32,158 nt of DNA from an uncultured archaeon (GCA_964388035.1 CAYLZE010000053.1:1-32158); one strand, 5' to 3'; counted from the stretch's first letter, positions 16,156-28,399 are shown. Made by a program: numbers and translations. The notes: a model not told the origin generated them from the sequence alone.

Positions 16156-17121
16156 TCACTTCCATGTAGCTTTAAATACACGGAGTAAATTATCATGAGA
16201 AATTTTAATTAAATCTTGTTCGCTATATCCGTTATTCAGGAGATACTCCCACAATTCAGGAAATTTAGAGGAATTCTTGACACAATTTGGGACGTCCGTG
16301 CCATCAAAATCCGAACCAATTGAAACGGTATTTATATCGCTTCGTTCAGTAATATGATCAACATGTCGCTTTATCGCCTCAAAACCCATATCCAAGTCTT
16401 TCATATCGGGTTTTCTCGGATTTAAAAAACTCATGCCAAAATTTATGCCAATCGTTCCTTTTTTTTCATGAATTGCTTTAATTTGATCATCCGTCAAATT
16501 TCTCACATGGTTTGTCACAGATCGCGCATTAGAATGACTTGCAATGAACGGTTTTTGCATAATTTTATTGAGATCCCAGAAGGTCGGATCGTTTAGATGG
16601 GAAACATCGAGAGTGATGCCTAATGATTGAGCTTCAATGATTAATTTTTCTCCCAAGGACGTCAATCCTTTTTTCGGTTGATGGGGATAAAATCGGGAAC
16701 CATTTCCAAATTTATTTGTATTAGACCAAGTTAAGCTAAGACTTCGCAGTCCCAAATGATAAGCTAGTCGCAATAATTTTAAATCATCATCAATTCCTCC
16801 CGCTCCTTCAAAATGGAGAAGGGCACCAATTTTTTCCGTGGTCTGTATCCTTTCGAAGTCTGATATCGTTTTTATTTGTTCCAGGTTATTCATAGGATTA
16901 GAGATCAATTTAAACCAAACATCTAAACCATTGATTATATGTTCTTGTTTCATCATGGGATATAATGCGAAAAGAGCTGCCTTTACATTACCCGCCCGCA
17001 TTCGGGGATAATCACAATGTCCTTTTTCAGATAACTCATAAAACACTCTTCCTTGAGTGTTGAGGTGGGTTGCCGTATCAATATGGCCATCAATTACAAA
17101 GAATTTATCCAAATTTGTCAT
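16156..17121 (-). CDS. Membrane/renal dipeptidase family (peptidase M19), no signal peptide apparent
   Basis: DGHIDT (HxD), HFEG, DVSH, ASHSN, RNL.D and IGSDFDG motifs. Confidence 0.92.
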   Translation of the reverse strand: MTNLDKFFVIDGHIDTATHLNTQGRVFYELSEKGHCDYPRMRAGNVKAALFALYPMMKQEHIINGLDVWFKLISNPMNNLEQIKTISDFERIQTTEKIGALLHFEGAGGIDDDLKLLRLAYHLGLRSLSLTWSNTNKFGNGSRFYPHQPKKGLTSLGEKLIIEAQSLGITLDVSHLNDPTFWDLNKIMQKPFIASHSNARSVTNHVRNLTDDQIKAIHEKKGTIGINFGMSFLNPRKPDMKDLDMGFEAIKRHVDHITERSDINTVSIGSDFDGTDVPNCVKNSSKFPELWEYLLNNGYSEQDLIKISHDNLLRVFKATWK

Positions 17122-17293
17122 GGCTTTTTTTGCGTTATTTAAATTTCGGATTAATAAATAGGGAAATTCTTACTATTTAAAGAATATTCGCCATATCACC
17201 AATGAATAATATTACAATGATAATAGCAATGATGTCTAGAACCTAACAAAAAAAAAGGGGTTAATTTAAGATGGTCTCACATCTTGACCACTT

Positions 17294-17956
17294 TTATTTT
17301 ATATTTGCTACAGTATAAAGAAAATCTGTAATCCCATATTTTTTCTTTTCTACTTTTTCGAAACCAAACGTGTTTATGAACATTTGAGAGGTGACATTAC
17401 CCTCATATACTTCGCATAAAATTTCCTTGATTTTTTTAGATTTCAGAAATTTCCACGCCTCGAAACCTAATATCGTTCCCAAACCGTTGCGCTGATAACT
17501 TGGAATGACGCCCAATCCCGCGATGATAGCAATGTCCTTTGCTTTTCCCCCAAAATCAATTAAAACAAAGCCTGCATCTTCTTGATTGGCGTTTGCGATG
17601 AGAAATGTGGTATCTTTATCATGAAAAATGGTTTCAAACTTTTCCAATTTCATGGGGCGAAAAGGTGCGCATGTAGAAGGCCAACTCTGATTGTAAATGT
17701 CTTTCACGCTTTCTAAATCCTCTTCTTTAGCTTCCCTAATCGTATAATTCAATCCGGCTTTTTTCACCCGATACTCTAGATTTTTTTCATATTCAGAGGT
17801 TATTTTTTCAATGGGTAAACGCAAGCGGATGTAACCTAATCCACTCTCGCATGCATTTTTATGGATTTCTTCTTTCTTATCCTCCCCTTTAAACATATCT
17901 CCAATGTGGAGGAAGAAACTACGTATAGCTTTAGCCCTTTCTGATGAATGCGACAT
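17294..17956 (-). CDS. GNAT family N-acetyltransferase
   Basis: IREA..EDL, the acetyl-CoA motif LGVIPSYQRNGLG, and N..S..F...FGF. Confidence 0.88.
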   Translation of the reverse strand: MSHSSERAKAIRSFFLHIGDMFKGEDKKEEIHKNACESGLGYIRLRLPIEKITSEYEKNLEYRVKKAGLNYTIREAKEEDLESVKDIYNQSWPSTCAPFRPMKLEKFETIFHDKDTTFLIANANQEDAGFVLIDFGGKAKDIAIIAGLGVIPSYQRNGLGTILGFEAWKFLKSKKIKEILCEVYEGNVTSQMFINTFGFEKVEKKKYGITDFLYTVANIK

Positions 17957-26722: not shown

Positions 26723-27007
26723 AAAGAAGCTAAAGAAAGCATATAAATAACAACATATTCTTTTTTTTTATAAATTTTTAATCTTGCTATTATTATTTGC
26801 TTCAAAAGCTAATTCACCATTCAATCTAGTCGAGATTTATAACTTTAAATCCTAATTTTCGTCTATTTGGTTACTTTTCGAATGACGAGAACTTAGATTA
26901 GTTATTTAACACGTTTTATGCTTGCACGTAGAAAAGCAGAATGAATTAATTCTTTCGAGAGGTTAAAAAAATGAAAATTTTAAAAAGGAAATAGAAAAAA
27001 AATATTT

Positions 27008-28399
27008 TCAAATCTTATGCAATAAGTAGCGATCTATTAAAATGGAGACGTTCTTGGTCTTTTCATCAATTTTTATCACTTTTACAGGAATTTCAGCCCC
27101 AAACATGGGAAGCGCAAATTCCAGAGCATCCATACTTTTGGGAATCAAGGGTGCGGTAATTGTTCCGCCCAACATCCTTGGTAAGTGAGCTTTTATCATG
27201 TGCATGCCGCCTTGCATTAGCAATTCTGCTTTTACAATTCCTTTATAGGATCTATATTTCCCGATAAGAATTTGCATTTTTTGGATTTGAGAGAGTAAGG
27301 GAATTGCATCCTCAATTTTTTTTCCTAATAACACCGCCAGAATTCCTATCGCAACCAATTCAGCGAAGGGGCCAGGCTGAGTATTAAGGCCTATAGCAAC
27401 TGCGATTTTTTTTTCCGGAATCATTGCGACTTCACCCCCACAGATGTGAAAATCCCCACCATGACTTATAAGCACGTTTCCAAAAAAATCTGAATGGATT
27501 CTCCATCCATATCCATAAGCAGGATTGCCGTAATCGTAAATGCTATCTTCAATTTTACCATGGGAAGCCCACATTTTTTCGATGGATTCCTTTTGGATGA
27601 TGGTTTCTCCGTTAAAGTCGCCCCCATTCATAAGTGCTATCATGTAATTTTCCAATTCTTTAACGGAACTAGTTAGCCCCCCGCTAGCATAACTTAGAGG
27701 GTTGATAGGTATGGGATTTCGGGTAAGCTTACCATCTAAATTGATATACCCCGTGATTGAATTCTCATCCTTCTCAAATTCTTCTTTTGAGTAGGTAGTC
27801 CTATTCATTTTAAGGGGTTTTAAGATGTTAGTTCTAACATATTCGGGATAAGGCATGTGAGTAACTTTTTCTACGATTGGTGCGATGAGAGCATACGTGT
27901 CATTGTTGTAGGAATACTTTTCTCCGAGATTCCAGCAAAATTCACCTTGAGCACCATTAATATATGTAAGAAAGTCTTTCCAACTAGACATTGGTGGCAT
28001 TTCATCAATTCCTCCCGTTAAGCGAAACACGATGGAATGTCCGGCCCAGAGTTCAGGCAAACCGGTAGTATGGGATAGCAGGTGATGAATTCTAATGGGA
28101 TCGTCCTTCTTGCCTAATTTAAAATTGATGTATTTATTCACGGGGTCGTTAATATTCAATTTATTTTGTTCTTGAAGTTGCATGATTGCCAATGCACCGA
28201 ACGATTTAGATATGGAACCAATTCCAAAAAGAGAATCGGGGGTCATGGGAAGATTTTGTTCCAAATCACGAGCACCATATCCTTCTGCGTATGCTTCCTT
28301 TCCATTAAGAAGGATTGCGATGCTCACTCCCGGAATTTTCATTTGCTGCATCAAATCCATGACAAAAGATTCCAGCATTTCAAATGCTTGTTGACTCAT
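27008..28399 (-). CDS. Serine hydrolase of the beta-lactamase/S12 family, Pab87 (CubicO)-like with C-terminal domain
   Basis: SxxK (GSISK), LLSHTTG, YxN (YSYNN) and HGG motifs. A ~100-aa C-terminal extension beginning IGKYRSYKG resembles the Pab87 oligomerisation domain; no signal peptide. Confidence 0.88.
   Translation of the reverse strand: MSQQAFEMLESFVMDLMQQMKIPGVSIAILLNGKEAYAEGYGARDLEQNLPMTPDSLFGIGSISKSFGALAIMQLQEQNKLNINDPVNKYINFKLGKKDDPIRIHHLLSHTTGLPELWAGHSIVFRLTGGIDEMPPMSSWKDFLTYINGAQGEFCWNLGEKYSYNNDTYALIAPIVEKVTHMPYPEYVRTNILKPLKMNRTTYSKEEFEKDENSITGYINLDGKLTRNPIPINPLSYASGGLTSSVKELENYMIALMNGGDFNGETIIQKESIEKMWASHGKIEDSIYDYGNPAYGYGWRIHSDFFGNVLISHGGDFHICGGEVAMIPEKKIAVAIGLNTQPGPFAELVAIGILAVLLGKKIEDAIPLLSQIQKMQILIGKYRSYKGIVKAELLMQGGMHMIKAHLPRMLGGTITAPLIPKSMDALEFALPMFGAEIPVKVIKIDEKTKNVSILIDRYLLHKI

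Follow-up and report, generated by a model that had tools for sequence, protein, structure and literature searches.

Do genes for hydrolases with relatives active on D-residues, when they lie side by side in an archaeal genome, form a pathway dedicated to D-amino-acid peptides? The question is raised by positions 16156 to 28399 of a 32,158–base pair (bp) contig from an uncultured archaeon. The entire contig, C53 of assembly G000, was analyzed and is referred to below as the window. The region contains genes of an M19 dipeptidase, a D-aminoacylase-type amidohydrolase (DAA), an S58/DmpA-family aminopeptidase, a Pab87-like S12 peptidase, and an OCD/mu-crystallin family enzyme, as well as two GPH transporters, and an initial annotation interpreted it as a locus for the intracellular breakdown of imported D-residue peptides, such as stem peptides of bacterial cell walls. 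We find that the region is not a conserved pathway but a real, loose, lineage-specific neighborhood in which genes of putatively cytoplasmic hydrolases of amides and peptides accompany those of two putative importers of the GPH type. We consider it moderately probable that this neighborhood serves general scavenging of small peptides and acyl-amino acids, D-substrates included.

The host assembly comprises 5.47 Mb in 211 contigs and is 96.7% complete, with an estimated contamination of 7.3%. A Lokiarchaeial Asgard archaeon as the host fits with the archaeal RNase P RNA encoded in the window, the 28 Ras-family GTPase paralogues found in G000, and the Asgard names of the sources of the nearest S58 homologues. 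Searches with Pfam, NCBIfam, and PDB sequences confirmed all the families that had been named, each in its place; the minus strand encodes the six enzymes, and the plus strand encodes both GPH transporters. The features of the region and of its two flanks are as follows.

15207–16025, minus strand: SagB-type nitroreductase-family dehydrogenase, flank (TIGR03605, 109 bits; cut-off 78)
16156–17121, minus strand: M19 dipeptidase (PF01244, Peptidase_M19, 279 bits)
17294–17956, minus strand: GNAT N-acetyltransferase (PF00583, 43 bits; NCBIfam and PDB matches weak)
18226–18551, minus strand: archaeal RNase P RNA, rnpB (RF00373, 133 bits)
18854–20278, plus strand: GPH1, GPH/MFS_2 secondary transporter (PF13347, 197 bits)
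20662–22284, minus strand: DAA, D-aminoacylase-type amidohydrolase (Amidohydro_3/1)
22562–23680, minus strand: S58/DmpA-family Ntn aminopeptidase (PF03576, 341 bits)
23774–24787, minus strand: OCD/mu-crystallin family NAD(P) enzyme (PF02423, OCD_Mu_crystall, 233 bits)
25325–26722, plus strand: GPH2, GPH/MFS_2 transporter (PF13347, 183 bits)
27008–28399, minus strand: Pab87-like (CubicO-type) S12 serine peptidase (PF00144, Beta-lactamase, 201 bits, and PF13969, Pab87_oct, 47 bits)
28611–30737, minus strand: membrane pyrophosphatase (PPase), far-edge flank (PF03030, 773 bits)

A loose and lineage-specific group of genes

To estimate how unusual the grouping is, we looked for stretches of eight consecutive genes containing at least four distinct families of the set S12, DAA, M19, S58, and DppA/M55. 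Only this spot in G000 qualified. Since none of 2000 gene-order shuffles placed four of the families in one such stretch (the maximum was three, in 26 runs), the grouping exceeds naive chance, and pure chance is unlikely; the family set was picked post hoc, which makes the test a lenient one.

The genes are not tightly packed. As the initial annotation had cautioned, there is no tight operon: both strands are used, gaps range from 93 to 537 bp, and rnpB lies within the region. Co-directional neighbors are separated by 172 bp (GNAT to M19), 93 bp (OCD to S58), 277 bp (S58 to DAA), and 211 bp (PPase to S12). The convergent pairs GPH1/DAA and GPH2/S12 are 383 and 285 bp apart, and the divergent OCD and GPH2 genes are 537 bp apart. 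This amounts to four or five transcription units, namely, GNAT-M19, GPH1, OCD-S58-DAA, GPH2, and S12 with or without PPase, of which OCD-S58-DAA could at most be the one operon. No shared operator was detected in 12 intergenic regions, where perfect palindromes occur only once or twice genome-wide, and the number of shared 10-mers (18) fell within the range of shuffled controls (2 to 30), providing no evidence of a regulon. No tRNA, flanking direct repeats, or clear compositional break that could mark the boundaries of a mobile island was found in the window. An 81-codon open reading frame sits in the divergent OCD/GPH2 intergenic region; open reading frames without a Pfam match are located at 25037–25282 (plus strand), 7979–8227 (plus strand), and 31307–32158 (minus strand).

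Conservation of the neighborhood, a check that had been proposed, was assessed in 60 relatives that range from the same genus (G001) to the same class (61 genomes with G000 included). It was also assessed in genomic and metagenomic sequence of up to 10 kb on either side of S58, with 84 S58-anchored loci in total. The gene cluster as such is absent from the 60 relatives, where its genes are scattered or missing. S58 was found in two of them, as an intact gene in G042 and as a broken one in G046; it was not found in G001, nor in the 36 genomes of the same family. OCD orthologues (60 to 66% identity) are restricted to G042, G051, and G053, with none in these 36 genomes either; their neighbor is a GPH-like gene or a permease of the APC family, and in G042 an ordinary APC amino-acid permease precedes the OCD gene. 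Homologues of DAA and S12 are present in 34 and 36 of the 61 genomes, respectively, and are not co-located as in the window. Even G042, which has orthologues of S58, OCD, M19, and S12, carries them all apart: M19 and OCD are separated by 425 kb, and S58 and S12, on another contig, by 77 kb. Across the 84 loci, S58 co-occurs with DAA three times, with S12 twice, with M19 once, and with OCD or GPH never. By the standard that the initial annotation had set for itself, the region does not pass as a conserved locus. The closest S58 relative (83% identity) is encoded on a contig from Logan (SRR21285597, locus L024) with a DAA-type gene 4 kb away.

Two of the S58 loci deserve a description of their own. 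At positions 169–8868 of L024, S58 is accompanied by genes of a creatininase-family protein, an S15/PepX-like peptidase, the DAA-type amidohydrolase, and an octopine-dehydrogenase-family protein; the last belongs to a different imine/opine reductase family and takes the place of the OCD enzyme of the window. The G046 homologue (L007 = G046:C145, ~9700–10110) consists of short fragments, three tblastn pieces, and is pseudogene-like; it adjoins an MFS_1 transporter gene, and an M19 gene lies 4.5 kb off.

The order ACS-S33-NTPase-...-M19-rnpB in G001 corresponds to 10.6 to 18.5 kb of the window. A 5.5-kb stretch of G013 holds the PPase gene (76% identity), a single GNAT-domain gene, rnpB, and the M19 gene (65% identity); PPase is ~2.4 kb from M19 with only the GNAT-domain gene and rnpB in between. 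The M19 orthologues of G001 and G013 (64 to 66% identity) adjoin rnpB, so this adjacency is seen in three genomes (the window; L151:11110–11440; L152:8522–8844). Given this synteny in G001 and G013, we regard rnpB-M19 with a nearby PPase as an ancestral backbone. Since the rnpB-M19 adjacency is ancestral, M19 occupies an inherited position beside the block, and its location is no evidence of functional coupling. The six genes GPH1-DAA-S58-OCD-GPH2-S12 (~18.8 to 28.4 kb) lie between the backbone elements only in G000, which suggests that they were inserted, or accreted stepwise, between rnpB-M19 and PPase. Two points count against this history: G013 could instead have lost the genes, a less simple alternative, and the G001 contig stops right after rnpB. 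Compared to G001 and G013, rnpB of the window is inverted relative to M19, and the window GNAT gene intervenes. A simple inversion of GNAT together with rnpB relative to G013 was ruled out, because no homology was detectable between the GNAT-domain proteins of the two genomes (E value of 0.14). G024 has a partial analogue of the block, a 15-kb stretch in which M19, M28, and S12 are found together with five GPH1-like genes and one GPH2-like gene.

Enzyme families and the case for D-peptides

Each of the four hydrolases (S12, S58, M19, and DAA) retains its catalytic motifs, and a crude Kyte-Doolittle scan revealed an N-terminal hydrophobic segment in none of the enzymes, in agreement with the lack of secretion signals described earlier. 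Judged by these features, the hydrolases look cytoplasmic and active. It is also correct that their families include members active on D-residues, and the question is how far the individual proteins resemble those members.

The best solved relative of the S12 protein is Pab87 (2qmi; 2.9e-83). Its motifs S62-I-S-K65, Y164-N-N166, and H313-G-G315 align to those of Pab87, and the C-terminal lipocalin-like octamerization domain is recognized at residues 365–461 (Pab87_oct, 47.1 bits compared to a cut-off of 27). The CubicO signatures are YAEAF/L, FFYLN, and a C-terminal ERY (PMC2651629). Unlike Pab87, the window protein lacks the first two, with WAGHS and YSYNN at the corresponding places, and has D456RY near its C terminus (456–458, five residues from the end), so one of the three signatures is approximately kept.

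DAA is most similar to an N-acyl-D-Glu deacylase from Bordetella (Bb3285, 3gip; 1.9e-81) and the Alcaligenes D-aminoacylase (1m7j; 3.4e-77), ahead of the carbohydrate de-N-acetylase OngB (9kb1; 2e-58). It shares the fold of 3gip and 1m7j and keeps their binuclear-site and catalytic residues HxH, Cys, His, His, and Asp (H62xH64, C91, H222, H253/H254-K255, and D419 in the comparison with 3gip). Also conserved are Lys, Tyr, and Arg positions that we take to bind the α-carboxylate in N-acyl-D-amino-acid deacylases. DAA differs from both enzymes in that an insertion separates two aligned blocks and its length is greater by ~60 residues, and it falls under the curated threshold of its best NCBIfam match (NF006560, 217 bits compared to a cut-off of 340); in Pfam, it matches only Amidohydro_3/1. 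It is of the N-acyl-D-amino-acid/L-Xaa-D-Xaa deacylase family type.

S58, a single-copy gene in G000, has P. horikoshii PH0078 (2drh; 9e-98) as its best solved relative, followed by BapA and DmpA (~1e-50). It shows strong full-length similarity to these self-processing Ntn enzymes and has the Gly-Ser autoprocessing and nucleophile site (G253-S254), which is invariant across 16 homologues. DmpA itself acts on peptides as an L-aminopeptidase and is D-selective only for amides and esters. M19 aligns to 3ly0 and 3fdg through the motifs DGHID, HFEG, VSHL, SHSN, and GSDFDG and has the binuclear zinc ligands and conserved Asp in common with 3ly0 (H13/D15, E105, H175, H196, and D271); L-L dipeptides, too, are substrates of this family. 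Among solved structures, the OCD enzyme is closest to the A. fulgidus alanine dehydrogenase (1omo; 4e-62), then to a Pyr2C reductase (6t3e; 3e-52). It falls under every NCBIfam equivalog threshold, including that for alanine dehydrogenase (TIGR02371, 249 bits compared to a cut-off of 409), and the cyclodeaminase model scores alike; by similarity, it may be alanine dehydrogenase–like, Pyr2C-reductase–like, or cyclodeaminase-like.

The statement that no similar locus has been described overlooks a precedent. In P. abyssi, genes PAB0086-PAB0095 encode the CubicO peptidase Pab87, the D-aminoacylase PAB0090, and an ABC transporter for dipeptides (PAB0091-95), and scavenging of D-residue peptides released by bacteria was proposed for this set (Delfosse et al. 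2009, PMC2651629). The window resembles it in that a murein-free archaeon combines, within a few kilobases, a putatively cytoplasmic S12 peptidase of Pab87 type with a D-aminoacylase-type amidohydrolase and a transporter, in the window a candidate importer: a distance of 4.7 kb separates S12 from DAA, and GPH carriers lie between and beside them. The two differ in that the candidate importers of the window are MFS_2/GPH secondary carriers rather than an ABC Dpp system, whose SBP_bac_5 component was not found in G000, and in that the window adds S58/DmpA and the OCD-family enzyme. They also differ in their hosts, since G000 is a mesophile-type Lokiarchaeon with ~16 S12 paralogues and extreme paralogue expansion.

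A second comparison is with murein-peptide recycling in bacteria, which relies on the AmpG permease, the AmpD amidase, LdcA, MpaA, the YcjG epimerase, and PepD. The concept is similar, in that an MFS permease imports wall fragments and cytoplasmic hydrolases dismantle the D-containing stem peptide. In contrast, the components are not shared: AmpG belongs to another MFS family, and the window enzymes are not orthologues of the recycling enzymes. No LdcA (S66) or AmpD-type Amidase_2 matched in G000, while control genomes were matched.

The genome was also searched for racemases, as had been recommended, and several were found. A complete, bona fide alanine racemase, whose N and C domains score 228 and 134 bits, is encoded directly upstream of and co-directionally with a GPH gene (C1:117070–119830; L145:12070–14833), and we know of no need for D-Ala in an archaeon. 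There are three Asp/Glu-type racemases, one of which, on C51, adjoins two DAA paralogues. Two of the four DppA D-aminopeptidase genes adjoin S12 paralogues (C74 and C87). Proline racemase was not found in G000.

The first alternative to general scavenging is a dedicated salvage of D-peptides or peptidoglycan stem peptides, with import by GPH carriers, hydrolysis by D-specific S12, S58, M19, and DAA enzymes, and subsequent deamination. Pab87 trims muropeptides by taking off their terminal D-Ala and has a preference for D-Ala-pNA, yet its kcat/Km on this substrate is just 3.9 M−1 s−1 (PMC2651629). Further points in favor are the deacylase-like DAA, the clustering of the families beyond gene-order shuffles, and the presence of racemases and four DppA genes in an archaeon, where the endogenous need is small. 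Against it stand the lack of conservation with orthologues scattered in G042, the position of M19 that is explained by ancestry, the negative searches of G000 for LdcA and AmpD-type enzymes, the partly kept CubicO signatures, and the lack of a shared operator, as well as the OCD enzyme, which has no known D-specific role and whose orthologues lie beside an ordinary amino-acid permease. The activities of DmpA on peptides and of M19 enzymes on dipeptides with L-residues point the same way, as does the proximity of GPH genes to L-specific peptidase families (M20 and M28). On balance, we regard a dedicated D-peptide pathway as unlikely. The original proposal of intracellular D-peptide breakdown is supported in part, by the intact, apparently cytoplasmic enzymes, their family membership, the adjacent candidate importers, and the racemases and DppA genes of G000; the searches for conservation, murein-recycling enzymes, and a shared operator lend it no support.

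GPH carriers paired with peptidases across the genome

The families of the region are expanded in G000, which has ~78 GPH/MFS_2 paralogues, 16 of S12 (~12 of full Pab87-like length), 11 to 12 of DAA type, four of M19, and four of DppA. S12 is the commonest neighbor family of GPH genes: 9 of the 16 S12 genes lie within two genes of a GPH gene, 8 of them within 410 bp, and many pairs, such as those on C2, C14, and C74, run in the same direction, 48 to 400 bp apart. When S12, DAA, and M19 genes were considered together, 10 of 33 had a GPH gene at a distance of no more than 1 kb compared to 2.1 expected under random placement, an enrichment whose significance is overstated because paralogue clusters are not independent. 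Examples of such places are C2:83–101 kb, C14:0.4–3.3 kb, C74:19.5–23.4 kb, and C17:28–51 kb. Other neighbors of GPH genes include M19, M20, M28, MR_MLE, aminotransferases, and alanine racemase, so L-specific peptidase families (M20 and M28) participate in the pairing as well; the nearest paralogues of GPH2 adjoin MR_MLE, M28, and M19 genes. The region is one of at least ten modules in G000 that combine a putative GPH importer with a cytoplasmic peptidase. Two families of ~246 amino acids without a Pfam match (L008:974–1717 and L011:1787–2527), present in 31 and 9 copies in G000, each have six instances in which a GPH transporter gene is no more than two genes away.

Canonical peptide importers, namely, SBP_bac_5 (Opp/Dpp), PTR2/POT, OPT, and CstA, were not found in G000, which is 96.7% complete, despite its dozens of genes for cytoplasmic peptidases. 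SBP_bac_5 occurs in 34 of the 61 genomes and was not found in G000, G001, G013, or genus g6, and S12-GPH adjacency in relatives (G024 and G013) is seen in exactly the lineages where SBP_bac_5 was not found. Scoring of MFS_2 copies in the relatives covers the best 23 per genome, and does not firmly establish an anticorrelation with SBP_bac_5. G012 has an SBP_bac_5 gene at a distance of 0.8 kb from a Pab87-like one, which mirrors the combination of Pab87 with Dpp in P. abyssi (PMC2651629). Because the canonical peptide importers were not found in G000, we infer that GPH paralogues located next to peptidases are the best candidate importers of peptides or acyl-amino acids in this lineage. GPH1, which has ~10 transmembrane segments and falls under the cut-off of TIGR00792, is likewise a candidate carrier of peptides or acyl-amino acids.

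An extension of this idea is that the expanded GPH/MFS_2 family was recruited for peptide import, D-peptides and muropeptides included, and that each carrier is paired with a cytoplasmic peptidase. Its partners would be Pab87-like S12, DppA, M19, M20, M28, or S58, and the window would be one multi-module island. We put this forward tentatively. The following points weigh against general scavenging with GPH-based import. Published surveys of transporters in Asgard archaea interpret GPH proteins as sugar importers, and characterized members of the family carry glycosides (PMC7997004); the known substrates of GPH relatives are glycosides or lysolipids. The solved relatives of GPH2 are distant (MFSD2A, 5e-18; MelB, 5e-11). 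GPH paralogues of G000 also adjoin sulfatases, enoyl-CoA hydratases, and URO-D-like genes, and the family is therefore not peptide-specific. Moreover, gene calls were crude, being the longest open reading frames, and the contamination and division into 211 contigs mean that a family not found in G000 is not proven absent from the organism.

The recurrence of the pairing also bears on a second alternative, a coincidental juxtaposition of unrelated genes, sharing neither substrate nor regulation, that piled up in a recombination-permissive spot next to rnpB in a 5.5-Mb genome rich in paralogues. Large paralogue families would facilitate such an event, and the use of two strands, the wide gaps, the rnpB gene inside, the lack of a shared motif, and the patchy S58 and OCD genes, not conserved in relatives, would all be expected from it. 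However, shuffles never placed four families within eight genes, GPH-peptidase adjacency recurs many times in G000 and is seen again in G024, OCD and S58 are 93 bp apart and co-directional with DAA, and the other contig with an 83%-identical S58 has a DAA-type gene 4 kb away. We therefore consider mere coincidence improbable.

The weakest alternative, that GPH proteins import glycosides or N-acetylated sugar acids, with DAA as an OngB-like de-N-acetylase and the peptidases as bystanders, draws on the glycoside substrates of characterized GPH members (PMC7997004), the membership of the de-N-acetylase PpOngB in the DAA family, and the location of 7 of the 19 sulfatase genes within two genes of GPH paralogues, and is very unlikely because DAA scores higher against N-acyl-D-amino-acid deacylases (278 to 263 bits) than against OngB (201 bits), the block has no glycoside hydrolase, kinase, or sugar-acid enzyme, and its neighbors are peptidases and an amino-acid dehydrogenase–like enzyme.

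A probable scavenging neighborhood and its setting

In the general scavenging that we favor, detritus would be the source of small peptides or N-acyl-amino acids taken up through the GPH carriers, and the S12, S58, M19, and DAA enzymes would hydrolyze them in the cytoplasm. The OCD-family enzyme would then act on the amino acids released, by deamination or imine reduction linked to NAD(P). D-residue–containing compounds are probably among the substrates, and such a module need be neither D-specific nor peptidoglycan-specific.

Other genes of the window were noted in passing. No cyclodehydratase or precursor gene was seen close to the SagB-type dehydrogenase gene, which has a paralogue (63%) on C3 ~2 kb from an aldo-keto reductase paralogue, the same arrangement as in the window. 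Further away, a CitMHS transporter and an FAD oxidoreductase are encoded between the DnaK and DnaJ genes (window positions 2731–4731 and 8869–10002), and no grpE was noticed in that interval.

A limited literature search on D-aminopeptidase, D-aminoacylase, and D-amino acids in Asgard archaea or Lokiarchaeota returned nothing relevant. Protein from detritus is held to sustain Asgard archaea in sediments, and the D-amino acids of bacterial walls constitute a large and poorly tracked pool of carbon and nitrogen. Taken alone, the window is a fairly ordinary accessory neighborhood; the better lead is the recurrent pairing of GPH and peptidase genes across G000. If GPH carriers, and not ABC or POT systems, import peptides here, the published inference that archaea of the Loki type use GPH proteins mainly for sugar uptake (PMC7997004) would have to be revised. 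A necromass-feeding lifestyle would then be marked by the numerous paralogues of S12, DAA, and DppA, and the island described here, if the GPH family was indeed recruited in this way, would support life on bacterial necromass.

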